Source: an uncultured Bacteroidia bacterium
GTDB taxonomy: Bacteria; Bacteroidota; Bacteroidia; Bacteroidales; UBA932
DNA: 64,000 bases
NCBI GenBank assembly: GCA_902785575.1
Contig: CACZZF010000013.1
Location: forward strand, 52,867-116,866
Reading direction: 5' to 3'
Numbering within the stretch: the stretch's first letter is position 1; every line of letters starts with the position of its first letter. This document shows positions 21,782 to 51,800 of this stretch, piece by piece. The notes under the pieces were generated by a model. That model did not search any database. It worked only from the letters and a program-made list of their open reading frames with translations, and was not told where the DNA came from. The position numbers were made by a program, and so were the translations under genes.

Positions 21782-21795
21782 GTGCCTTGGCCGCG

Positions 21796-21873
21796 GTGCC
21801 GGGTGTCGTCCCGGCTCCCTGCGCTTCGCGCCCTATCCGGGTAAATGGTCGCCGGTGGCGACACCCGGACACC
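21796..21873. repeat. GC-rich hairpin repeat (family with core CTCCCTRCGCTTCGCGCCCTATCCGGGTAAATG), intergenic copy
   Basis: Arms GGTGCCGGGTGTCG (21796-21809) and CGACACCCGGACACC (21859-21873) are complementary. Core 21810-21847 matches 28172-28210 in reverse orientation at 37 of 39 positions. Confidence 0.65.
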
Positions 21874-21886
21874 GGGGACGTTGGAT

Positions 21887-27450: not shown

Positions 27451-28512
27451 TTATCTTCTAAGACGGACGTAGATGGAGAGTGGGAGGACTTTGCCGAATT
27501 TGTCCTTGAGGGCAAGTTCTCCGGAATCAAGAGGAGTGTCAGCTTTCAGCCCAAGCGCTTGACGGACAACTGTTTCCCCAAGGACGGCGGAGAACCCGTT
27601 GGAATACAGGTTCAGAACCATGAAGCTGTTTTCGGGAGCGAGGATCTGGCCGACATTGCGCATCATCTCGAACAGGCATTCATCAAGTTTCCATTTCTCC
27701 CCGTCCGGGCCATGCCCATATGCTGGCGGATCAAGGATTATTCCGTTATAAAGATTCCCTCTGCGGGCCTCTCTCTTCGCGAATTTCATGGCGTCCTCCA
27801 CCACCCAGCGTATGCCGTCCAGGCCACTGCGGTCCTGGTTCTCATGCGCCCAGGTCACTACCTGTCGCACAGAATCAAGATGAGTCACATCCGCCCCCGC
27901 GGCCCTTGCGGCAAGAGAAGCCGCACCGGTGTAAGCGAAAAGATTAAGCACCTTCGGTCGCTGATCCATGGAAGCTGCGATCTCCGAAGTGTTCCGGAAT
28001 ATATATTCCCAATTCGCCGCCTGCTCCGGAAATACCCCAACATGCTTGAATGACGTCAGCCCCAGCCGCAGCGAAAACTCCATCCGTTCACACCCGGTGG
28101 GCAGTGAGGTTTTTATCTGGTGTTTGTCAGGAGTGGCGGAACCGCCGGTGGTCGGGAAGTCCCCAGACGGACATTTACCCGGATAGGGCGCGAAGCGTAG
28201 GGAGTCCGGGGACTTCCCGCCACCGGCGATGCCACCGGACAACCTGTACCGGATCCACCACTGATCAGGCATCGCCTTCAGACGGTTCCAAGTGCCGCTA
28301 TCCTCCTTCCCGGCTTTACCGAACCCGGCACCAGGAGTGAATAAAACATGTGCGGCGGAGTCCCATTCCTTCTGGGACAACTCCTTGTTCCACAACGCTT
28401 TAGGCTCCGGCCTTGAAAGAACGAAACCACCGAACCGCTCGAGCTTCATCCCATCTCCGGAATCCAAAAGCTCGTAGTCTTTCCACCTATCTGAGGGAAA
28501 CTCTGTCGCCAT
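27451..28512 (-). CDS. Class I SAM-dependent RNA methyltransferase (RlmI/RlmK-like, PF10672-type) carrying an in-frame repeat insertion
   Basis: YELLDSGDGMKLERFGG N-terminal block. SAM motif VLNLFAYTGAASLAA, and IILDPPAYG. The MATEF start at 28512 is preferred to the ORF-track start at 28593. Confidence 0.8.
   Translation of the reverse strand: MATEFPSDRWKDYELLDSGDGMKLERFGGFVLSRPEPKALWNKELSQKEWDSAAHVLFTPGAGFGKAGKEDSGTWNRLKAMPDQWWIRYRLSGGIAGGGKSPDSLRFAPYPGKCPSGDFPTTGGSATPDKHQIKTSLPTGCERMEFSLRLGLTSFKHVGVFPEQAANWEYIFRNTSEIAASMDQRPKVLNLFAYTGAASLAARAAGADVTHLDSVRQVVTWAHENQDRSGLDGIRWVVEDAMKFAKREARRGNLYNGIILDPPAYGHGPDGEKWKLDECLFEMMRNVGQILAPENSFMVLNLYSNGFSAVLGETVVRQALGLKADTPLDSGELALKDKFGKVLPLSIYVRLRR
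28133..28230. repeat. GC-rich hairpin repeat, intragenic in-frame copy (same core family as 21796-21873)
   Basis: Arms CCGGTGGTCGGGAAGTCCCC (28145-28164) and GGGGACTTCCCGCCACCGG (28208-28226) are complementary apart from one indel. The loop carries the shared core. Confidence 0.65.
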
Positions 28513-28536
28513 AGTGGTGCAAAGATAAAAAAATAG

Positions 28537-28544
28537 TATCTTTG
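28537..28544 (+). promoter_or_regulatory. Candidate -7 box (TAnnTTTG) for pgk
   Basis: TATCTTTG ends 36 nt upstream of the pgk ATG. Confidence 0.4.
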
Positions 28545-28579
28545 CTCCGGAAAAAAACGATAACAAATTATTTTTCACT

Positions 28580-29833
28580 ATGCAGCAGCACATTGACTCT
28601 TACGATTTCAAAGGCAAGAAGGCCATTGTCAGGGTGGATTTCAACGTTCCGCTCGATGAGAACTTCAACATCACTGACGACACCCGTATCCGCGCCGCCC
28701 TTCCTACACTGAAAAAGGTCCTCGCTGAAGGAGGTTCCCTTATTCTCATGTCCCATCTCGGCCGTCCGAAGGGCGTCACTGAGAAGTTCTCACTCAAGCA
28801 CATAGTCGCCCATGTCTCCGAGTGCCTCGGAGTTCCTGTCCAGTTCGCCCCCGACTGCCAGAAAGCTGACGAGCAGGCCGCCGCGCTGAAGCCAGGAGAG
28901 GTTCTGATGCTTGAGAACCTTCGTTTCTACGCCGAGGAGGAAGGCAAGCCCAGAGGACTCGCTGAGGACGCCACTGACGAGGAGAAGGCCGCCGCGAAGA
29001 AAGTTGTCAAGGAAAGCCAGAAGGAGTTCGTGAAGAAACTCGCTTCCTACGCCGACTGCTACATCAACGACGCTTTCGGAACCGCCCACAGGGCCCACGC
29101 TTCCACCGCCCTCATCGCCAAGTACTTCCCTGAGGACAAGATGTTCGGCTACCTGATGGAGAAAGAGATCAAAGCCATCGATAACGTACTGAAGAACGCC
29201 CGCCGTCCTTTCACCGCTATCATCGGCGGCTCCAAGGTTTCCTCGAAACTCGCTGTCCTTGAGAACCTTCTTGGTAAAGTTGACAACCTTATCATCTGCG
29301 GCGGAATGGGTTACACCTTCATCAAGGCCGAGGGTGGAAATATCGGTAACTCTCTCCATGAGGACGAGCTTATCCCTCAGGCTAAGGAGATAATGGAGAA
29401 GGCGCAGGAACTTGGTGTCAACGTGTCCCTGTCTGTCCAGACCCGTGTCACCCAGGAGTTCGCCAATGATACTCCCGAGATGGTTGTCCCTTCTCACAAG
29501 ATTCCTGACGGATGGGAAGGCCTTGATTGCGGACCCGCTTCGATCGAGAACTGGGCCAGGATCATCCTCGCCTCCAAGACCATCCTCTGGAACGGTCCCG
29601 CCGGTGTGTTCGAGTTCCCGAACTTCGCCACAGGAACCGAGAAGATCGCCGAGCTTGTCGCCAAGGCTACCGAGCATGGAGCCTATACCCTCGTTGGTGG
29701 TGGAGACTCTGTCGCCGCTGTCACCAAGATGGGCTTCGCCGACAAGGTCAGCTATGTCAGCACCGGTGGTGGAGCCATGTTGGAAGCAATTGAGGGTAAG
29801 ACGCTTCCCGGCATCGCCGCTATTCAGGAATAA
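28580..29833 (+). CDS. pgk: Phosphoglycerate kinase
   Basis: 417 aa. [17 protein letters not shown] and GGGDSVAAV motifs. Confidence 0.97.
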
Positions 29834-31513: not shown

Positions 31514-31539
31514 TCCGCTTCAATGTTATCTGATCGGCC

Positions 31540-31611
31540 AACCCTGTCATTCTGAGCGCCCGCAACCCTGTCATTCTTAGCGCCCGCAACCCTGTCATTC
31601 TGAGCGCCCGC
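31540..31611. repeat. Tandem repeat, 3 x 24 bp (AACCCTGTCATTCTGAGCGCCCGC)
   Basis: Units at 31540-31563, 31564-31587 (one G>T change) and 31588-31611. The last unit runs into GAAGAATC, completing the hairpin motif. Confidence 0.9.
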
Positions 31612-42073: not shown

Positions 42074-43266
42074 CGACCACGATGGATAATATAGATAACG
42101 AGGCCATAAAATTCGACTGCAGCCGGGGATGCACTGTCACACGTGACAGCGAGTCCGGGGAGTACGATTGCAACTACCGTCAAGGATGTTGCAAACTCGG
42201 GGCTTACAACTGGCTCAAGGGTGTGAACCAGGAACAGTACAAAGATTTATTCGAGGTCCGTTTCAAGAACACCCGTAAAGGAATATATATCAACGCCTCA
42301 GGTCAGGGTATCAAAACCGGGGACTTGGTGGTTGTCGAGGCCGCTAACGGTCATGATCTCGGAATTGTGACTCTTGAGGGGCCTATTGTCGGCCGCCAGA
42401 TGAAGTGCAAGGGTGTCGACATGGAGACCACGGTCTTGAGAAAGATATACCGTAGGGCAAAACCTTTTGATATTACCAAGTGGCAAGAGGCTATCGCCCG
42501 GGAGCAAGATACAATGATCCAGGCCCGCCGTATCGCCGCGGAGCTTGGCCTGGATATGAAGATCGGAGATGTTGAGTTCCAGGGCGATGGGACGAAAGCG
42601 ATATTTTATTACATCGCTGACGGTCGTGTCGATTTCCGCCAGCTGATCAAGGTCTATGCGGAGGAATTCCGTATCAGGATTGAGATGAAGCAGATCGGAG
42701 CCCGTCAGGAAGCCGGGCTCATTGGAGGGCTTGGAGTCTGCGGTAGAGAGCTTTGCTGCGCCAACTATATCACTAATTTCCAGTCGATTTCGACATCGGC
42801 CGCCAGGGTTCAGGACCTGTCGCTGAATCCGCAGAAACTTGCCGGGCAATGTGGCAAGCTCAAGTGCTGCCTCAATTACGAGGTCTCCAATTACATGGAT
42901 GCCCAGACTAGGATTCCCAAAGTCACTGAACCGCTTGAGTTCGAGGACGGATTGGTATATCTGGTCAAGACTGACATCCTCCAAGAGATGATGTATTTCT
43001 CCTATGAGAAGGGTTCGCTCACCAATGTCTATCCGCTCACCGCGAGCGAGGTTCGTGAGATTATCATGATGAACCGGAACGGGGAACGTCCGGATTCCCT
43101 CAAGAGTGATCCGGAACCTCTTGGCCCTCAGTTCATTTCCGCTGTCGGGGATGATAGCATCACCCGTTTCGACAAACCGAAGAAGCAGAAGAGCAGGAAC
43201 CGTAACAGGAACCGTGACAACCGTGGTGGCGGACGTGGCAAGAATCCCCGGAAGGATCAATCATAA
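42070..43266 (+). CDS. PSP1 domain protein (RicT/YaaT-like) with basic C-terminal tail
   Basis: PSP1 C-terminal block GICGRELCCANYITNFQSISTSAARVQDLSLNPQKLAGQCGKLKCCLNYE. Follows holB, as it does in many bacteria. Confidence 0.8.
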   Translation: MTTTMDNIDNEAIKFDCSRGCTVTRDSESGEYDCNYRQGCCKLGAYNWLKGVNQEQYKDLFEVRFKNTRKGIYINASGQGIKTGDLVVVEAANGHDLGIVTLEGPIVGRQMKCKGVDMETTVLRKIYRRAKPFDITKWQEAIAREQDTMIQARRIAAELGLDMKIGDVEFQGDGTKAIFYYIADGRVDFRQLIKVYAEEFRIRIEMKQIGARQEAGLIGGLGVCGRELCCANYITNFQSISTSAARVQDLSLNPQKLAGQCGKLKCCLNYEVSNYMDAQTRIPKVTEPLEFEDGLVYLVKTDILQEMMYFSYEKGSLTNVYPLTASEVREIIMMNRNGERPDSLKSDPEPLGPQFISAVGDDSITRFDKPKKQKSRNRNRNRDNRGGGRGKNPRKDQS

Positions 43267-43272
43267 GTCGTG

Positions 43273-43716
43273 ATGAAGGGACGTTTGTGGATATTCGTCC
43301 TGGTGGCGGTGGCGCTCGCATGCTGTTCCCGCCCTCCGTCCCGGGAGTTCTTCATTCTCCGGGAGAACGCTGAATATGGCGACACTTATTCTTTTTTCCT
43401 GGATCTGGATGATTCCACCCAGACATATTCTTTGGATTTCTTCACCAGGCTCGAGAGGAATTCATTCAAGGACTTTCCGCCAGAGGATATCATCTTGGAT
43501 CTCAGATGGTTCTCTCCTTCAGACTCTATCTTGACAGACACCGCTTTTGTCAAGATAAATGATCTCGCCGGCTCCGGTTATTACTCCCGGGACTTGATAA
43601 CCCCGTTCAGTGCGGATCTGGATCTCCCGGAGGTTGGAGAGTGGAGGCTCAAGGCCAAGGTTGTCAATGATTCTGAGGAGATCCGCGGATTGGGAATAAT
43701 ACTAAAACACGACTGA
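43273..43716 (+). CDS. gldH: GldH-like lipoprotein
   Basis: Lipobox VALACC, about 147 aa. Position after the holB-PSP1 pair is typical of Bacteroidota gldH. Sequence resemblance was judged from memory only. Confidence 0.5.
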   Translation: MKGRLWIFVLVAVALACCSRPPSREFFILRENAEYGDTYSFFLDLDDSTQTYSLDFFTRLERNSFKDFPPEDIILDLRWFSPSDSILTDTAFVKINDLAGSGYYSRDLITPFSADLDLPEVGEWRLKAKVVNDSEEIRGLGIILKHD

Positions 43717-44714
43717 TGGGTCACGATAAACTTAGGAAATTCGCCGAGAACGAGACTTTCGCCTGCTTGCTGCAGCCGGATGCCTCAAAGGTTTTGGACA
43801 AGACTGGAGATCCTTCTGAGGGCCTGAAGCTCCATGAACATCCGATTAAAGGTCATTGGAATGAGATGATGTTCCACAATGACCAGCCGATTGTTTTGGA
43901 GCTTGGCTGCGGAAAAGGAGAGTACACTATTGATTTGTCCAGAAGAGTCTCGGAAAGGAATTATATCGGTGTGGATATCAAGGGAGCGAGACTCTGGAGA
44001 GGCGCTAAGACGGCCACTGAGGAAGGGATTGGTAATGTGGCGTTTCTGAGGACGAGGATAGAGTTTATCGAGGCGTTTTTCGGGCCTGGGGAGGTGAGTG
44101 AGATTTGGTTGACGTTTTCTGATCCGCAATTGAAGAGCGAGAACAGTCGTCTGACCAGTCCGCTTTTCCTTGAGCGTTATCGCAAGTTCCTCCGGCCCGG
44201 CGGAATCATCCACCTCAAGACCGACAGCCGTTTTCTCCATGAATATTCCAAGGCGGTTGCCCTCGAGAACGGTCTCGACATCCTCGCCGCGACAATTGAT
44301 TTATACGGTGGCAGATGTCCCTCGTGCGACGTCCGCTCCGCGGACCCCACCACCGGCTTTGCCGGCGGTCCCCCCTCTTACGTGGCCGAGGGTGGCCACG
44401 GTCTCCGAGGGACATCTGCCGCCGTAGACAAATCCTACCAAAAAGATTCCACGTTTGCCGGAGCGGACGTTGAACGGGGGGAATACTCCCTCGGAACCGT
44501 ACGTGGGAAGTATTCCCTCGGAGCGGAGTTATTCGAGGTTCAGACGTTCTATGAGCGTATGTTTCTTTCGCAGGGGTACAAGATCACGTATCTTGCGTTC
44601 ACAATCGACCATGACGGACCATATAAGCATCCAGAGACCTTCGATTCTGATTATTGGAGATCGATAGAGGGACCAAGAAGGTTCGTTCACTCACCGGCCT
44701 CTTCCCAAAGGTAA
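43716..44714 (+). CDS. trmB: tRNA (guanine46-N7)-methyltransferase carrying an in-frame repeat insertion
   Basis: LELGCGKGEYT SAM motif, plus IGVDIKG, VAFLRTRIE, WLTFSDPQLK and GIIHLKTD. The ORF is 332 aa, about 70-100 aa longer than characterised TrmB proteins. Confidence 0.85.
   Translation: MGHDKLRKFAENETFACLLQPDASKVLDKTGDPSEGLKLHEHPIKGHWNEMMFHNDQPIVLELGCGKGEYTIDLSRRVSERNYIGVDIKGARLWRGAKTATEEGIGNVAFLRTRIEFIEAFFGPGEVSEIWLTFSDPQLKSENSRLTSPLFLERYRKFLRPGGIIHLKTDSRFLHEYSKAVALENGLDILAATIDLYGGRCPSCDVRSADPTTGFAGGPPSYVAEGGHGLRGTSAAVDKSYQKDSTFAGADVERGEYSLGTVRGKYSLGAELFEVQTFYERMFLSQGYKITYLAFTIDHDGPYKHPETFDSDYWRSIEGPRRFVHSPASSQR
44310..44522. repeat. GC-rich multi-hairpin repeat element inserted in frame in trmB
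   Basis: Perfect inverted repeats at 44310-44324/44406-44420 and 44329-44340/44459-44470. 20-bp palindrome at 44381-44400. Homology to 48650-48695 in reverse orientation. Confidence 0.65.
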
Positions 44715-45988
44715 AGCCGGTCGCCTCTACGAAGCTTGCGATCACCTTTCCAGTCTTCCGGAAACGATACCGGAATAGAGCACAAATCACCCTTTCTGGC
44801 CTCTGGGACTGGCTTCAGATCGACCCTGATCTCTTCCACCCGGCCCTCATAGACCCCGGTGGTCGCCCCGATGGCGATATATTCATCACCCACTTTGAAA
44901 GATCCCGATTCGACCAGGACTTCGGCTACTCCCAGGCGGTCGAACCAATTGGTCACCTTCCCGAAATAAGTCTTCCTGCGGGAGGCGTGGCTTCCGTAGA
45001 TCTCACTCCATTCCCCGAGCTTGGCTCCTTGGTAATAGCCGTCCCAAAAACCTCTGTTGAACACTTCGGAGAGCTGTTCTTTCAGATTTGAGGCAAGCTC
45101 ATCTGTGAACGTGCCGTCGCAGACGGCGTCGGCCGCCTTCCGGTAACAAGAGGCCGTCCTCTTCACATATTCAGCGGACCGTGCCCTGCCTTCAATCTTC
45201 AGCACCCGGACTCCCGAGTCTATGATCTTGTCCATGAACTCGATGGTACAGAGATCCTTAGGGGACATTATGTACTTGTTGTCGATATTCAGTTTATATC
45301 CCGTCTCAAGGTCGGTCACTTCATAGCCACGGCGGCAGACCTGGTAGCACTCGCCTCTGTTTCCGGACTTCCCGTGGGCGTGGAGGCTTAAGTAGCACTT
45401 CCCGGAAACCGCCATACAAAGCGCCCCATGGGCGAACATCTCGATTCGCACCGGTTTCCCGGACGGCCCTGTAATATTCTCAGAGTCAATTGCTTCCTTT
45501 ATGGCTTTGACTTGCTTTAGATTTAGTTCCCTGGCTAGGACAACCACATCAGCGAACCTTGCCCAGAATCTCAAAGCCTCGATGTTGGAGACATTAAGCT
45601 GGGTCGAGGCGTGTACTTCCAGGCCGATTGCCCTGCAATAAGATATCGCGGCCATGTCAGAGGCGATTATGGCGTCCACCCCTGCGCTTTTCGCGGCATC
45701 AAGGGCTTCCCGCATCGCATCCAGATCCTCATTGTAAAGGACTATGTTAAGGGTCATATAAGTCTTGACCCCCGACTTTCGGCAGATCCTTGTGATCTCC
45801 GGAAGATCCTCAGGACAGAAATTGTTAGCCGAGTGGGAACGCATGTTTAGTCTTCCGACTCCGAAATAAACAGAGTCGGCTCCACCCTCGATCGCTGCCG
45901 CGAGGCACTCGAAATTGCCCGCCGGAGCCATTATCTCAATTACCTTCCTATCCATGGATTGCCGATTGTGCTGTGCAAAGATAGCCAT
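44687..45988 (-). CDS. Peptidase U32 family protein (RlhA/TrhP-type)
   Basis: IEIMAPAGNFE N-terminus, SVYFG, and the LSLHAHGKSGNRGECYQVCR cysteine block. An alternative start is MDRK at 45955. Confidence 0.85.
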   Translation of the reverse strand: MAIFAQHNRQSMDRKVIEIMAPAGNFECLAAAIEGGADSVYFGVGRLNMRSHSANNFCPEDLPEITRICRKSGVKTYMTLNIVLYNEDLDAMREALDAAKSAGVDAIIASDMAAISYCRAIGLEVHASTQLNVSNIEALRFWARFADVVVLARELNLKQVKAIKEAIDSENITGPSGKPVRIEMFAHGALCMAVSGKCYLSLHAHGKSGNRGECYQVCRRGYEVTDLETGYKLNIDNKYIMSPKDLCTIEFMDKIIDSGVRVLKIEGRARSAEYVKRTASCYRKAADAVCDGTFTDELASNLKEQLSEVFNRGFWDGYYQGAKLGEWSEIYGSHASRRKTYFGKVTNWFDRLGVAEVLVESGSFKVGDEYIAIGATTGVYEGRVEEIRVDLKPVPEARKGDLCSIPVSFPEDWKGDRKLRRGDRLYLWEEAGE

Positions 45989-46048
45989 TTTCGGATATTT
46001 TGGTTATATTGCGGATTAGTTGCGGAATAAGGCCGCCGTGTTAAAGTT

Positions 46049-48442
46049 ATGCGTTTAACTATCAGTATTGAATATTACACCGTTCTGGGAGAGTCCCTCT
46101 TCGTGGTTTTAGCCGACGGTAAGGAGTTTCCCATGCGTTATGTCGCTGACGGGATTTGGGCGACGGAATTCAACGTCCCCATATCGTGGAAAATCGTGGA
46201 TTATGGGTTCGTGGTTAAGAAGGATGGACAGATTGTCCGTCGCGAATGGTCCGGACATGTTTTGAATATTCCTTCGTCAAAGAAGATATCCTCTGTTGAG
46301 GTCAGGGATCGTTGGAATGAAAGACCTTCCGATGCCCCGTTCTGGACAAAAGCCTTCACGGACGTGATTTTCGGAGGAAAGGACTCGGCCGCGAAAAGGA
46401 CGACAGGAGATTCGGTTATCATGGTGGCGGCTCCGCAAGTACGTAAGGGTGAGACCCTCGCTGTGACAGGTTCTGGGGCCAAGTTCGACGACTGGAAGAG
46501 ATTTGTTCCCATGTCCAGGAAAGGTGTGATGTGGAAAGTTACTCTTGATTCCAAGGAAGTCTCTGAATATAAGTTTGTTATTATCGATTCAAAGACAGGG
46601 GATCCGATCGCTTGGGAGACTGGACGGAACCGTCGTTTCTCAGGTTATGTCGAGGATGGCTCTCTCTTGGTAGTCCGTGAAGCGGAGCCGGTTTTTGCCA
46701 GGGCTCCCTGGAGGGGGACCGGAGTAGCGATTCCGGTGTTCTCGCTTCGTTCCGAGGATAGTTTCGGTGTCGGAGAATTCAAAGACCTTAAGAAACTTGT
46801 GGATTGGGCCGTCGCTACTGGCCAGAGCGTGATCCAGATCCTTCCGATCAACGACACCACGATGTCCAGGACTTGGACGGATTCTTATCCTTACAACGCC
46901 AATTCCACCTTCGCCCTTCATCCGCAGTTCATATCCCTTCCCGAGGCCGGGGTGAAGAAGACAAAGGAATATAAAGCTCTCCAGAAAGAGCTTAACGCCC
47001 TCCCTCAGATTGATTACGAGCGTGTCAATAATGAAAAGACCCGTTTCCTGCAGGAGACTTTCAATGCTATAGGACCGGAAGTCCTTGCCAGTGAGGAATA
47101 TAAGTCATTCTTCAAGTCTAATGAGCATTGGCTTGTTCCTTATGCGGCTTTCTGTGTTCTGAGGGATCTGAACTGCACTCCGCAGTTTGGGAAATGGACT
47201 GAACTGAGTGTATATTCCCGTAGCGGTGTGGAGGCTTTCAGGAAGGTTCATGGCGAGAAGATGGATTTCTACTGCTGGGAACAGTTCTGCCTTGACACGC
47301 AGCTTAAGGATGCCGTCGATTATGCCCATTCCAGGGGTGTCGCGATTAAAGGTGACCTGCCTATCGGCATAAGCCGTGACAGTGTCGACGCATGGCAATA
47401 TCCCGAACTCTTCAATCTTGATTCCCAGGCGGGAGCACCGCCGGACGCTTTTTCCGAGGATGGTCAGAACTGGGGCTTCCCGACTTACAATTGGGAGGAG
47501 ATGTCCAAGGATGGCTATGGTTGGTGGAAGGCTCGTCTCGGGAAGATGAGCGAGTATTTCGACGCTTTCAGGATTGACCATATTCTCGGTTTCTTCCGCA
47601 TCTGGGAGATTCCTCTTGGCATAAAGTCCGGCCTTCTGGGTCATTTCAATCCGGCTCTGCCATATTCGGCGGATGAGCTTCGAGGCCGAGGTTTCAATCC
47701 CGACACTGACTTGTTCGTTCCTGATCCGCATCGTCCTGGTTGGTATCATCCTCGTATTTCCTCCCAGAAGACAGCCGCGTTCGAGGCTCTCGAGCAATGG
47801 CAGAAAGATGCCTACAACGACTTGTACAACGATTTCTTCTATCGCCGCCATAACGATTTCTGGAAGGAGACGGCTATGCGCAAACTTCCCGCCTTGCTGG
47901 ATTCAACGGGCATGCTCGCTTGCGGCGAGGACTTGGGTATGATTCCGGCTTGTGTGCCTGAGGTGATGGATGAGCTCAAGATCCTTTCGCTTGAGGTGCA
48001 GAGGATGCCGAAGTCTCCGGAGGACACTTTCGGTGATCCGGACAGATATCCGTATCTTTCCGTATGTACGACTGGATCGCATGATACTTCGTCGCTCAGG
48101 GCTTGGTGGGAGGAAGACAGAGAGCTGACTTCCAAGTATTTCCATGAGATGCTTCATTGTGAGGGGCAGGCTCCGGCGTTTTGCGAGCCTTGGATTTGTG
48201 AGTTGATTTTGAAGAATCACCTCGATTCTCCTGCGATGTTCTGCATCTTGCCGCTTCAGGATTGGTTGTCTATCGATGGTTCGGTCCGTTACCAGGGTAA
48301 TCCGGCTGACGAGAGGATCAATGTTCCGGCTAATCCTCGGCACTACTGGCGCTGGAGGATGCACACAACCCTTGAGGACTTGCTTTCCCGCACTGACTTC
48401 AACACTCGTCTCCACGACCTCATCACCACCTCCGGCCGGTAA
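46049..48442 (+). CDS. malQ: 4-alpha-glucanotransferase (GH77, amylomaltase) with N-terminal starch-binding-like domains
   Basis: GVGEFKDLKKLVDWA, ILPINDT, GDLPIGISRDSVDAW, FRIDHILGFFRIWEIP and ACGEDLGMIP motifs. Confidence 0.85.
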   Translation: MRLTISIEYYTVLGESLFVVLADGKEFPMRYVADGIWATEFNVPISWKIVDYGFVVKKDGQIVRREWSGHVLNIPSSKKISSVEVRDRWNERPSDAPFWTKAFTDVIFGGKDSAAKRTTGDSVIMVAAPQVRKGETLAVTGSGAKFDDWKRFVPMSRKGVMWKVTLDSKEVSEYKFVIIDSKTGDPIAWETGRNRRFSGYVEDGSLLVVREAEPVFARAPWRGTGVAIPVFSLRSEDSFGVGEFKDLKKLVDWAVATGQSVIQILPINDTTMSRTWTDSYPYNANSTFALHPQFISLPEAGVKKTKEYKALQKELNALPQIDYERVNNEKTRFLQETFNAIGPEVLASEEYKSFFKSNEHWLVPYAAFCVLRDLNCTPQFGKWTELSVYSRSGVEAFRKVHGEKMDFYCWEQFCLDTQLKDAVDYAHSRGVAIKGDLPIGISRDSVDAWQYPELFNLDSQAGAPPDAFSEDGQNWGFPTYNWEEMSKDGYGWWKARLGKMSEYFDAFRIDHILGFFRIWEIPLGIKSGLLGHFNPALPYSADELRGRGFNPDTDLFVPDPHRPGWYHPRISSQKTAAFEALEQWQKDAYNDLYNDFFYRRHNDFWKETAMRKLPALLDSTGMLACGEDLGMIPACVPEVMDELKILSLEVQRMPKSPEDTFGDPDRYPYLSVCTTGSHDTSSLRAWWEEDRELTSKYFHEMLHCEGQAPAFCEPWICELILKNHLDSPAMFCILPLQDWLSIDGSVRYQGNPADERINVPANPRHYWRWRMHTTLEDLLSRTDFNTRLHDLITTSGR

Positions 48443-48457
48443 TTTACCACACCTTCG

Positions 48458-48625
48458 GAGGGCATAGGCCCTGTAAGGACTCCGCTCACTTCGTTCGCTC
48501 CGGCCCCTCCCAACGCTATTTGGGCATTCGCCGTGAGCAAGCTCACGTCTCATACCCAACTATCGTTGGGCCCCTCCCCCTGCCCCTGTCCGGGGGTGGA
48601 CAGGCCTTACAGGGCCTATGCCCTC
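48458..48625. repeat. Large palindromic element 1 (perfect 21-bp terminal inverted repeat with nested hairpins)
   Basis: GAGGGCATAGGCCCTGTAAGG (48458-48478) is the exact reverse complement of 48605-48625. Inner palindromes: CCCAACG/CGTTGGG, GTGAGCAAGCTCAC, CCTGTCC/GGACAGG. Confidence 0.75.
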
Positions 48626-48634
48626 TGTTCGGTG

Positions 48635-48802
48635 TCGAAGGAAGTAGTAATGCCCGGAGGCGTGGCCCCCCTCGGCCACGGGAAGAGGGATGGGGCCCGT
48701 TGGATACGAGTTATCGCATTAGCGATGACGAAGTAGACAATGGGAGGGTACGGAGTGGAGCGAAGCGGAACGAAGCCCTCCGGGCATCACTACTTCCTCC
48801 GA
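48635..48802. repeat. Large palindromic element 2 (26-bp terminal inverted repeat, 24/26 complementary)
   Basis: 48635-48660 pairs with 48777-48802. Inner palindrome CGTGGCCCCCCTCGGCCACG (48661-48680) is 19/20 identical to the trmB insert palindrome. Confidence 0.75.
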
Positions 48803-48819
48803 CATGGCGGAGTAAGTGG

Positions 48820-48862
48820 GAGAAAAAAGATCGAGGCGTCTCTGGTGGGAGGCGCCTCGATC
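48820..48862 (-). terminator. Rho-independent terminator of the 1059-aa lipoprotein gene
   Basis: On the minus strand: GATCGAGGCGCCTC / loop CCACCA / GAGACGCCTCGATC, followed by TTTTTTCT. Starts 22 nt after the stop. Confidence 0.75.
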
Positions 48863-48883
48863 GTGGAATGGTGGAAATCAGGG

Positions 48884-51800
48884 TTAATTGATTTCGATAC
48901 TGTTAAAGCATAGCTGTCCGGCCTTTGTCTCGCCATCGGAACCATATACCGCCTTTTCACCGACAGTGAATGTGACGGACTTGGCCGATCCTGACCATGT
49001 GACAGTCGCATCTCCGGCAGTTTGCTTCGCCACAGTTCCGGTATTCGCTGTGATAGGAGCGAGTCGTTTCTTTCCTTGATTGGAAATGTTGAACACAATA
49101 CTCGTCATATTCGCTCCTGTCGTCGTGATAGTGACCGTACCCTTAGCGTAGACACGGCAATCGTTGGCGGATGCGTTTACGGCCGGGTTAGTGGAACCAT
49201 TGACTTTATCAATTGTGATGGTATAGTCACCGGCAGTCAAGGAGATTACTTTCTCCCCGATTCCTGACCAAGCGTCACTGGAATCCCAGGTGATTTTCCC
49301 GCCAGATATTGAACCGCCACTGCCACCAGGAGTGTCGCCACCAGGGGTGTCGCCGCCACCACCACCGCCTTGGCCTTCGCCGATATACTCGTAGAGGCAA
49401 GGCATCAGGGCACCACTCTGTTCTGATGCGTAAGAGCCGTAGGAGGAGTGGGAAACTGAATACTGAACGTACTTATTGACCGAAGTGTTGGTGATTGTGG
49501 CTTTCCCGTCGCTGGCGATGGAAATGGTCCAGTACTGTCCTTCAGAAGGAGAGGCGTCAACATTGAAGTTGTCGTACGTGCCCTTCTGGTACAGGAGCTT
49601 TCCGTCGGACTGCGCGATTGTGTAGCCAGTGCCAGCCGATGTGATCACATACTCGTTGCTTCTTGAAGGCATGGAGATGACACCATTATTGTCAGTGGCC
49701 TCATCCACATTTATATAACCGAAATTCTTGGTGATAGGCGAACCGACATAGGCCTTGCTACCATCCAGAGCGACGAGGATGTATGACTTACCGGAAGATA
49801 CGCTGGTGGCCTTCTGGTAGTTGTAGACAGTGGTGGATGAACTGCCGCCACTGAACGAGACGATCTCGGCATCCACAACCTCATGCTTCTTGTCCTTCTC
49901 GTAGTACTGGTACTTGCCCAGGAGAGTGACAGTGCCGCCATTCTTGATCTTGTTGGACCACTCGCTCTTGTTGGTGACGGTGTAGACGTAGATCGTGCCG
50001 GTCTCATCGGTCAGGTCGAAGCGGCAGTTGCTCTTGTTGTAATTGCTTACGGTACCGGTGAGTTTCAGTTTGATGTCAGTCCTGGCAAGGCTGATGAACT
50101 GGGCGACAGTAACATCGTCACCTTCCTTCATGGTCACGCCATTGCTGGTGAAGGAGACGGCGATGATGTTGATCGCTCCGTCAGACTCACCATAATAGAT
50201 ACCTGTCAGGTTGATGTTGTAACCATTGTAGGAGGCGAGGCCAGTGTAGTTGGCCGGCTTGTAGATGACAACTTTCTTGGTGGCGCCCTTGACAGTCAGG
50301 TTATAGTTGCCCGAGTTGTCGATTGTGAGGTCACCAGTAACCTTGACAGCGGTCGGGACACCTGTGTTGAAGGTGTTGATCTTGGAAGTGATGTCGGTCC
50401 CGGATACCTTGACGGTATTCTTTTCGGAAACGGTGGTGAATCCAGAGACGGAACCAAGGGCCGGGAGGTCGTTGAACTTGGTGGCGGTCGCATTGAACTT
50501 CACGGAGTCGCCTGCCCACTGAGGAGCATTGGAGGCATCCTGGACGAAGATGTAGCTGCCGCCTCCGGAGACGACATATCCGTCAGTCGTGACAGCGACC
50601 ATCAGTGAGGTCTTGAGCTCGATTTCCTCGCCCTCGTCAGAAGCGGCGGCTTCGGCCACATCCATCGAAGGATCACCCTCGAAGACGGCCTGATTGATTG
50701 TGCAAGTCTTTGTGATGTTGTTTCCTGAGAACTCGACCGTAGCTGTTCTCTCAGCCTCGGTCTTGTTTCGCTTGGCGGTGAAGGTGAAGATCTTCTCAGT
50801 CAAGCCCCTGGTCGCGGGGGAGACGGAGAGCCAGTCGGAACCTTCGGTCACGTTGGCCTTCACTATGATATTGGAGTTGACGACAAACGCCACAAGCTGA
50901 CGCCTTCCGTCGATGTTGACGACCTCCTTGCTGAGGATCAGCGCATCCTCGGTGACCTGGGTGATAGTCACGACGGTTCCGTCCTCGAGGGTGACTTTGG
51001 CGGACCTGCGGTCGTAAGACTCGTTCTTGGACACATTCACAACGACCTGGTCTCCGACAGAGACGATCTTGACCCAATCGGCGTCGACCTCGGCGGTGGA
51101 AGACATGATAGGGATAGTGAGGTTACCGCCCTGGTAGTCGCTGGTGTATTCAGTTTGGACGACAGGCTTGCCGGACTCATTCAACCCGATATTGATGATC
51201 TTAATGAACGAACCGCCCTTGTCGTCGGTGAGCAGGAAGAGAATCTTGGTCGGTTTGACTTTTTCGGGAGCCTTAATAGAGATTCTTCCGGTCCTGGAGT
51301 CATTCTTGTAGAACTTGACAGTCCAGCCATCACTCTCAAAGGTCTCGAGGTCAACTTTGGCGCCTTCAGGAGCTGTGATTGTGTAGGCGGTGCTGAGGAG
51401 CTCGCCGTTACGCATGGAAGCGAAGACTTTCTCGTCGAAAACGAGCTGGAGCTTCTGGGCGGCATTTGTCAGGGGAACGGTGATGACGGTGCCGTCACCG
51501 AGGGTGAAAATGGCGTTGTTGGGATCCGTGGTCACTTTCTCGAACACGCAGGTGGCGGAAGCACCCTGGCCCTCAACCTTTGTCCATGAAGCGCCATTGT
51601 CATAGGAGACCATCCACTGGTCATCCTCGATCTTGACCTGGGGAGTATTGCTTGTGGACACCTTATTGCCCTCGGCGTCAAGAAGCCATGCCCCGTTGAC
51701 AGTCCAATAGAAATTGCCGTCAGAGTCGGCCTTGGCTCCGATCACGGGAGTTGTGCCATCTTGACCGTTCTTTCCGTCTTTACCATCAACACCGTTATTG

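Follow-up and report, generated by a model that had tools for sequence, protein, structure and literature searches.

Palindromic repeats that lie within reading frames are best described from Rickettsia, whose Rickettsia palindromic elements (RPEs) are ~150 bp long and fall into ten families, with 44 copies in R. conorii of which about half are in frame in open reading frames (ORFs), each element being described as encoding a conserved peptide (PMC10969869). Occasional in-frame fusions also involve MITEs (miniature transposable elements with inverted repeats) such as ERIC, BOX, Coxiella QMITE1/2 and the Anabaena MITEs (PMC10969869, PMC5896051). Repetitive extragenic palindromes (REPs) are single palindromes of 20-40 nt with a GTAG or CGTC tag, extragenic by definition and present in hundreds of copies (PMC3733652), and the only well-described small non-autonomous repeats in Bacteroidales are the Porphyromonas gingivalis MITEs (BrickBuilt/MITEPgRS) (PMC4596501, PMC5771137). 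In-frame ‘protein-coding palindromes’ had been presented as peculiar to the obligate intracellular lineage Rickettsia, whose genome is decaying. The subject here is a 64,000-nt stretch of DNA (‘the window’) from an uncultured Bacteroidia bacterium (contig CACZZF010000013.1), and within it a segment dense in inverted repeats that lies in frame in trmB, the gene for tRNA (guanine46-N7)-methyltransferase. We think it likely that this segment represents one member of a palindromic, non-coding repeat family that is dispersed, occurs in frame in housekeeping genes of ruminant-gut Bacteroidales and is an analogue of RPEs. The original prediction, made from the letters of the window, had proposed just such a repeat in a conserved gene with RPEs as the parallel, and orthologues, dispersed copies and the many host genes now support it.

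The 332-aa ORF at 43716-44714 (+) had been named TrmB on inspection, and the name stands: it matches Pfam PF02390 Methyltransf_4 (E=3e-23) and B. subtilis TrmB (PDB 7nyb/2fca, E=3e-25), the latter alignment spanning residues 44-203 and ending at the insert (...DLYGG). The Gly/Pro/Ser/Arg-rich peptide that was said to interrupt it is present, at 70 residues and not 71. All of the inverted repeats that had been listed were found in their places, the 15-bp one being a portion of a 21-nt repeat (44304-24 / 44406-26, 95% complementary) and the 12-bp one of a 22-nt repeat (44319-40 / 44459-80); the insert also contains the GGGAATACTCCC / GGAAGTATTCCC pair and a 27-nt tandem duplication (44474-95 / 44501-22). 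Its GC content reaches 0.69, against ~0.50 in the flanks, and its RNA fold of -127.9 kcal/mol (z=-7.7) was equalled by none of 200 shuffles.

The supposed 213-bp element is indeed repeat DNA, but it is not a single unit. The block is made up of a complete 123-nt element, a linker, what remains of another copy, and a duplication of short length. The complete element (family 1, type A; 44304-44426, +), which codes for residues ~197-237 (YGGRCPSCDVRSADPTTGFAGGPPSYVAEGGHGLRGTSAAV) in a frame designated F1, scores 117.5 bits with a first covariance model, R1, whose eight near-identical seeds made it too narrow, and 107 bits with the rebuilt model, R2. Its DNA and RNA folds alike have an outer stem around three hairpins, the DNA fold being worth about -46 kcal/mol on either strand (z=-8.4 and -6.8). 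The 5' arm of the outer stem, P1 (44304-44324), contains TACGG, the codons of the conserved TrmB Y-G, and pairs at 95% over 21 nt with its reverse complement, the 3' arm (44406-44426). Between the arms lie the P2 hairpin GTCCGC TCC GCGGAC (44331-44345), where copies differ by compensatory changes in helix 3; the P3 hairpin (A)CC A CCGGC TTT GCCGG C GG(T) (44349-44369), where helices 4 and 5 covary; a C-rich single-stranded tract, TCCCCCCTCTTA (44369-44380), which corresponds to invariant alignment columns; and the P4 hairpin CGTGGCC GAGGGT GGCCACG (44381-44400), a 7-bp stem with a 6-nt loop and the most conserved part of the family. The CCCTC of the tract is complementary to the P4 loop, pairing between loop and tract reaching 99.8%, with one position that covaries. 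All these parts, like the rest of the block, are on the plus strand. The linker DKSYQKDSTFA (44427-44459) is probably original loop sequence, since GACAAATCC resembles GACAAAAATCC of an allele that lacks the element (L001). Next, at 44460-44501, is what is left of an older copy in opposite orientation: the reverse complement of the junction and the 5' half of P2, followed by the old P1 arm, CGGGGGGAATACTCCCTCGGAA, and CCGTA. The reversed element of L002/L003 has the identical sequence at its right end. The old P1 arm is duplicated in tandem over 27 nt, and the block closes with the second copy of this duplication (44501-44522, TVRGKYSLG; repeat family D2), which L002 has as well.

What do relatives have at this site? 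In 120 TrmB homologues the residues between DLY(G) and (A)ELFEVQTFYE number from 12 to 78. The empty allele closest to that of the window (P0008/L001; ~95-96% identity over the flanking gene) reads DLYGDKNPSLGAELFEV, without the segment, whereas insert-bearing orthologues have one of three unrelated peptides, DVRSADPTTGFAGGPPSYVAEGGHG, RSTSAPRTPPP..PPLTWPRVATV or TVATLGHVRGGTAGKAGGGVRGADV. Translating the window DNA in two forward frames and one reverse frame gives exactly these three, from which it follows that a nucleotide sequence has been conserved and not a protein module. The comparison proposed at the outset, whether orthologues lack the segment, has thus yielded both empty alleles and others that hold the same DNA in three states of frame and orientation. 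It bears directly on the idea of a lineage-specific protein feature, such as a linker with a function, or an extension that binds RNA, under selection at the amino acid level and with the palindromes incidental, which we regard as very improbable. That idea would accommodate a frame that is always kept, hosts that are mostly RNA-binding enzymes and the Gly- and Arg-containing peptide of the reverse frame, R1. However, three unrelated orthologous peptides from the same DNA, one of them acidic, effectively refute it, and conservation at the nucleotide level across frames, the disuse of the most Arg-rich frames, the occurrence of the same DNA between genes and the lack of structure of the insert in an AlphaFold model all go against it too.

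The alleles differ in architecture as much as in peptide. In the syntenic contig L002 a 75-nt core is reversed, 100% identical and bounded by 26-nt terminal repeats; it (frame R1) and L038 (frame F1) have their elements at a common site and with common arms. Deletions distinguish close relatives (P0002, P0003), and five distinct structures exist among trmB alleles with at least 95% flank identity. Since the window allele is compound and close relatives have deletions, the trmB site is a hotspot of structural turnover.

Could the segment be an assembly or chimera artefact, or else an intervening sequence, intron or intein, that is lost before the protein becomes functional? Short-read assemblies appear to be broken or folded back by the repeat: L073 (1-260) has, at the very start of the contig, an 89-bp perfect fold-back around an element, and the TrmB entries P0021, P0099 and P0103 stop inside the element on contigs of 1-2 kb. 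Such disturbance speaks for an artefact. Against it, the identical allele is in the interior of contigs from independent assemblies (L004, 5.9 kb; L152, 99 kb), and this recovery counts against an artefact; related alleles of the insert are in the interior of 96-265 kb contigs and the window allele belongs to a 39-member protein cluster. As for an intervening sequence, there are no intein blocks and no Rfam intron match, the size is far too small and the bias in frame usage described below argues for translation. This pair of explanations is the least credible of those considered.

The position of the insert is one at which additional residues would do little harm. AlphaFold gives the TrmB core a predicted local distance difference test (pLDDT) score of 80-95 and models residues 197-268 as coil with pLDDT 24-40, between a strand at 189-193 and a helix at 270-274. 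A surface-loop location had been suggested as a check on the insert, and the model, with a disordered loop compatible with the fold, agrees with it: the insertion is predicted to be at a fold-compatible position, as in a surface loop. The site, just ahead of a conserved T-x-Y-E helix, is a loop that varies naturally and that in empty alleles has 8-10 residues. Downstream of it L272, E274, V275, T277, Y279, E280 and other residues are invariant in 35 orthologues, and because this T-x-Y-E region is invariant the gene looks functional. The trmB element would be both transcribed and translated, giving ~70 disordered residues in which Gly, Pro, Ser and Ala abound and which the enzyme would tolerate.

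That the element is one of a dispersed family had been expected, to be examined by counting copies and placing them inside or between genes, and it was borne out by 97 genome loci (~70 of them real copies) and 69 metagenome loci besides three copies in the window itself, with coding and intergenic positions about equally represented. One genome per species was scanned with the P4 hairpin sequence as query, which gave the 97 loci; ~70 are real copies in ruminant Bacteroidales metagenome-assembled genomes (MAGs), from rumen, omasum and related ruminant sites and labelled Bacteroidales, Candidatus Cryptobacteroides or Coprenecus, and the remainder are isolated matches in GC-rich phyla. The two classes are cleanly separated, as an outer stem with complementary arms of 10-34 bp encloses each of the Bacteroidales copies and none of the chance matches (P1 stem score 9-34 in the ~70 copies versus at most 8 in the chance matches). 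A metagenome scan with a 28-nt signature as query added the 69 further loci, and covariance models found extra copies without the text signature, ~8 per Mb of sampled DNA. Copies are 100-170 nt long and have no ORF of their own, at most 10 with the exact signature being found in one MAG, and within one genome there recur subfamilies that have their P1 in common. The viral contigs and plasmids that were scanned had no copies. A few copies (L033, L090, L005, L085) are in MAGs labelled Anaerotignum, Lachnospiraceae or ‘bacterium’; these are probably on mis-binned Bacteroidales contigs.

With model R2 the three family-1 copies in the window are that of trmB, at 107 bits, and two at 48.46-48.80 kb. 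The intergenic copy at 48458-48625 (+; 41.7 bits, E=6e-8, model match 48464-48619) has the covarying P4 CCTGTCC GGGGGT GGACAGG, a CCCCC tract, a long P3 and 24-nt outer arms at 96%. The other, at 48633-48804 (-; 44.1 bits, E=1.5e-8, model match 48646-48791), is of the subtype with P4 loop GAGGGG, has a 28-nt P1 and is conserved in the syntenic L002. A reverse-orientation resemblance between the insert and DNA at ~48650-48695 had been noticed by eye, and both blastn (86% over 36 nt, 48655-48689, E=5e-5) and the covariance model (44 bits, E=1.5e-8) recover it. The two copies stand head to head between convergent genes. The intergenic region concerned, 48445-48885, is flanked by a GH77 gene (end 48442) and a convergent DUF4988/BACON gene (end 48884), is nearly filled by the two copies plus a terminator-like hairpin (48829-48862) and is ~98% conserved in L002.

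A copy was called coding when an ORF had at least 40 codons on either side of it. By this measure long ORFs span 34 of the 69 genome-set copies and 45 of the 69 in the metagenome set; ORFs over the copies in L040, L069, L150 and L163, which have no Pfam family, were treated as spurious and left out. Sixteen host families of in-frame copies were verified (Pfam-confirmed, plus one unknown protein), with the insertions mostly between Pfam domains. Ten act on tRNA or rRNA, namely TrmB, MiaA, MiaB/MtaB-like, TruB, MnmA, Fmt, MetRS, RsmH, KsgA and a THUMP-like methyltransferase, and the others are RibF, DapF, IspG, a PMI-type cupin, an MFS transporter and the unknown protein. The excess of tRNA/rRNA-acting hosts has P ~6e-10 for a 5% background and ~2e-6 for 12%, both backgrounds being our own estimates. 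Within a clade of ruminant-gut Bacteroidales the family is shown to have colonised intergenic DNA together with, in frame, loops and linkers between domains of housekeeping proteins.

Only three frames are used in these genes, F1, F2 and R1, the last being the codon-aligned reverse complement of F1; two Arg-rich frames and a stop-bearing frame are not. Of the Arg-rich frames one lacks stops in 51% of copies and the other in 41%, yet neither is used in any of the 16 host families (p ~0.005, after correction for the measured stop-free rates, an initial (3/5)^n estimate having been too optimistic). Their disuse argues indirectly for a peptide that is made and is screened by selection. Both orientations of the element are seen in trmB, miaA and the cupin gene.

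The fold is common to the family. Folded by themselves, 46 of 62 copies adopt a structure in which the outer stem P1 encloses P2, P3 and P4, with the single-stranded C-rich tract ahead of P4, and the sequence of P1 varies by locus while its arms remain complementary. MAFFT with RNAalifold on 32 copies had recovered only the invariant P4, because variable stems were misregistered, and was replaced by covariance-model alignments. When 95 distinct copies are aligned by model, standard pairs fill 93.8% of cells (72.3% in shuffled controls), 32 of 40 pairs change on both sides and the covariation score is 0.451, compared with 0.118 for shuffles, none of 500 of which reach it, and at most 0.07 when partner columns are slid. 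An earlier alignment of 65 copies is similar, with 29 of 35 pairs changing on both sides, so that the two together give 93.8-95.1% paired and scores of 0.43-0.45. These figures come from alignments fitted to the model, and kinship of the sequences inflates the shuffle control; the conclusion is nevertheless robust, given the control with slid columns and the variety of pair types at each position. Diverged, model-found copies show P4 itself to covary (CATGGCC/GGCCATG, TGTGTCC/GGACACA, CCTGTCC/GGACAGG). Position 2 of the P4 loop follows the tract, with GAGGG/CCCTC in 90 copies, GGGGG/CCCCC in 3, GCGGG/CCCGC in 1 and a mismatch in 1, but as ~two independent events are involved this loop-tract covariation is suggestive only. 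The fold of the family is a conserved four-way junction, not a simple palindrome. Among mismatches G.T (70) and A.C (50) are similarly rare (p=0.08) and both DNA strands fold equally well, so the constraint is strand-symmetric, which fits a fold at the DNA level or else an RNA fold in an element that flips often. In seven copies (L027, L035, L099, L125, L130, L153, L159) the P3 tip has an extra 40-60 nt that form a hairpin of their own (..GACAACAAGTTGTC..), and P3 evidently tolerates nested insertions or cargo.

Several structural notions were tried and set aside. A full H-type pseudoknot is sterically doubtful, as only 1 nt would be available to span a stem of 5 bp, and was kept only as loop-tract pairing or an alternative helix. 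A tRNA mimic was considered in view of the four-way junction, the tRNA-enzyme hosts and the resemblance of GTGGCCGAG.GG to the D-arms of class II tRNAs; there is no Rfam tRNA match, the loops are of 3 nt and orientation is free. That the P1 arms arise anew at every locus, through inverted duplication of the host DNA alongside, an idea prompted by TACGG...CCGTA in two trmB alleles and by TCCCTCGGA in the empty allele, could not be established: L001 resembles a deletion derivative that has kept an arm remnant, P1 subfamilies recur within a genome and orthologues have their P1 in common.

The core has changed remarkably little. In orthologous trmB insertions its identity is 0.94 (0.92 when the ascertained P4 is subtracted), with 0.83 for flanking coding DNA and 0.62 for third positions, and in miaA the corresponding values are 0.87 for the core, 0.88 for codon positions 1 and 2 and 0.48 for third positions. 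Of the 39 long-loop TrmB proteins, chosen by homology only, 34 have kept the P4-encoded peptide with at most one substitution. Subtypes are locus-specific and common to orthologues, and paralogous copies within one genome differ, a pattern that points to vertical inheritance with constraint and not to homogenisation among copies. Being under constraint at the nucleotide level the element is not decaying junk; RPEs are said to have been described by Amiri et al. in 2002 as deteriorating after an old burst.

Is it then a host function that maintains the fold? The element may be a cis-acting nucleic acid module under host-level selection, whether domesticated or never selfish, serving in DNA as the target of a structure-specific host protein or in mRNA as a structure that tunes translation or stability, with the peptide a by-product. 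A core conserved like host codon positions 1 and 2 and far above third positions, the retention of the P4-encoded peptide in those 34 of 39 homologues, locus-specific subtypes that speak against gene-conversion homogenisation, invariant junction strands and P4 loop with loop and tract covarying, and the strong bias to tRNA/rRNA-acting hosts would all be at home in such a scheme. But orientation relative to transcription is free and flips within one gene, so that the RNA would be C-rich in one allele and G-rich in another; copies are in unrelated genes and in intergenic DNA; there is no known binding partner; and a cmscan with Rfam 15 of 43000-49500, which holds the three copies, gave no match at E<=1 on either strand. 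Moreover, close relatives carry empty or deleted alleles, so the element is dispensable at trmB. We judge such a module unlikely, and the more specific version, in which a structure-dependent four-way junction under purifying selection is read by a host factor to coordinate or tune RNA-modification genes while its peptide is tolerated, somewhat more so.

How the family spreads brings in another contender, an ordinary MITE or an element of the REP or REPIN (REP doublet forming a hairpin) type, mobilised in trans by a transposase whose gene lies elsewhere: for a MITE a DDE insertion sequence, or, for a REP-like element, a Y1/HUH enzyme, either a REP-associated tyrosine transposase (RAYT) or an IS200/IS605 TnpA, acting on single-stranded hairpins. 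Terminal inverted repeats, small size, the lack of an ORF, several copies per genome and P1-sharing subfamilies within a genome are in keeping with it, as is the head-to-head pair between convergent genes, which resembles a BIME (bacterial interspersed mosaic element) or REPIN arrangement. HUH-type systems (IS200/IS605, REP/RAYT) create no target-site duplications; that, with a requirement for hairpins, fits what is seen, no consistent duplication being present outside P1 in 62 copies, whose edges are blurred with P1 often running past bulges. However, the terminal repeats are the least conserved part, when an end-binding transposase would conserve the ends, half of the copies are intragenic, unlike REPs, and, besides target-site duplications, a consistent flanking tetranucleotide is missing. 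We hold this possible though doubtful, and more plausible than a host-serving module.

For the reading favoured here, an in-frame repeat of the RPE kind, the following would apply. Spread may be through a mechanism that recognises structure in folded or single-stranded DNA, which the strand-symmetric fold and the absence of a target-site duplication would fit. Once in place, recombination or template switching between the P1 arms could flip the core, since P1 is an inverted repeat, and the codon-aligned flip would turn frame F1 into R1; flipping through P1 would explain an identical core in both orientations at the same trmB site as well as the orientation polymorphism in miaA and the cupin gene. 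The core and P4 would owe their retention to selection that acts on the nucleic acid and not on the peptide. The host bias may most economically reflect that the hosts are conserved yet individually dispensable, multi-domain enzymes of low abundance in which a disordered loop is tolerated, and an insertion would persist for the same reason as inteins do, imprecise deletion destroying the gene.

A number of points weigh against this reading. As to mobility, neither a consistent target-site duplication nor a pair of filled and truly ancestral empty sites was seen, and even the closest of the empty alleles may derive from a deletion. No transposase was seen beside any copy in blocks of at most 8 kb, which were looked at without a systematic scan. 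Copy numbers are modest and, coming from incomplete MAGs, uncertain, and that the insert is translated we infer. The excess of tRNA/rRNA-acting hosts is not predicted by random insertion; the trmB and miaA copies appear to be old and vertically inherited, not recent insertions; and a core that evolves too slowly for plain selfish junk hints at a host function or a maintenance mechanism.

Family 1 is not the only repeat in the window. A second, distinct palindromic family has copies at 21789-21879 (+) and 28142-28229 (-), 78% identical over ~150 nt, with a common core CTCCCTRCGCTTCGCGCCCTATCCGGGTAAATG inside long complementary arms. The copy at 28.2 kb is in frame in the ORF 27451-28593 (-), a 380-aa SAM-dependent methyltransferase (PF10672; PDB 2igt, E=1e-51), exactly where this protein has its excess of ~50 residues over 2igt. 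At 31539-31611 there are three tandem copies, 96-100% identical, of a 24-nt unit (CAACCCTGTCATTCTGAGCGCCCG C) unrelated to the trmB element. Beyond the insert, the 3' end of trmB shares 28 nt (44687-44714) with the 3' end of a convergent U32 peptidase gene (44687-45988, -), and the same is true in L002.

The literature, approached by topic and by sequence, yielded no earlier description of such elements in Bacteroidota, in agreement with the original remark that no equivalent was known from Bacteroidales. The existence of an independent and more elaborate family in abundant, free-living rumen Bacteroidales suggests that colonisation of housekeeping proteins by repeats may be a more general evolutionary route. 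The family is also a natural experiment in which repeat reading frames a proteome tolerates, with proposed inversion in place via the outer stem that would switch the encoded peptide, and with a non-coding fold, conserved like the enzyme around it, that prefers RNA-modification genes. On the practical side, the elements break MAG assemblies, lengthen marker proteins (TrmB, MiaA, TruB) and can mislead rumen genome annotation and phylogenomics.

The P. gingivalis MITEs are intergenic, related to insertion sequences and of other sequence and architecture than family 1, and we know of no report of their being translated inside housekeeping genes. With REPs, BIMEs and REPINs it has in common GC-rich hairpins, the lack of a target-site duplication, a location between convergent genes, inverted pairs on occasion and, plausibly, a structure-dependent biology of single-stranded DNA; it differs in its 100-170-nt multi-hairpin unit, in having tens of copies of which about half are intragenic, in showing CGTC at the P2 base in some subtypes only, and in that no RAYT is linked to it in the blocks of up to 8 kb, for which there was no systematic scan. 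Like bacterial MITEs it is small and multicopy, has terminal inverted repeats (P1 arms of 10-34 bp on every copy) and no transposase ORF, and is sometimes intragenic in frame. Unlike them, about half of its copies are in frame in genes where for MITEs this is occasional, its terminal repeats are variable and its interior conserved, and neither a target-site duplication nor, in the blocks of up to 8 kb around copies, a recognisable parent insertion sequence was found.

The likeness to RPEs (RPE-1 to RPE-10; Ogata et al. 2000 Science, 2002 Genome Res) is the closest: these too are palindromic, non-autonomous repeats of ~100-150 bp with many copies per genome, dispersed between genes and unusually often in frame in unrelated housekeeping genes, adding a peptide at a fold-tolerant position (a predicted one in our case), and with several families per genome, two being present in this window. 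The family is not filed as a member of the RPEs, as the phylum differs, the RPEs were compared by description only, and the feature of one conserved peptide in fixed frame and orientation is absent, F1, F2 and R1 occurring even within one gene. What sets it apart is that its hosts are free-living gut Bacteroidales and not obligate intracellular Alphaproteobacteria, that one DNA exists in three frame and orientation states with probable flipping in place, that the genes entered are biased to enzymes acting on tRNA and rRNA, and that its covarying four-way junction combines a variable outer stem with a core under strong constraint at the nucleotide level.

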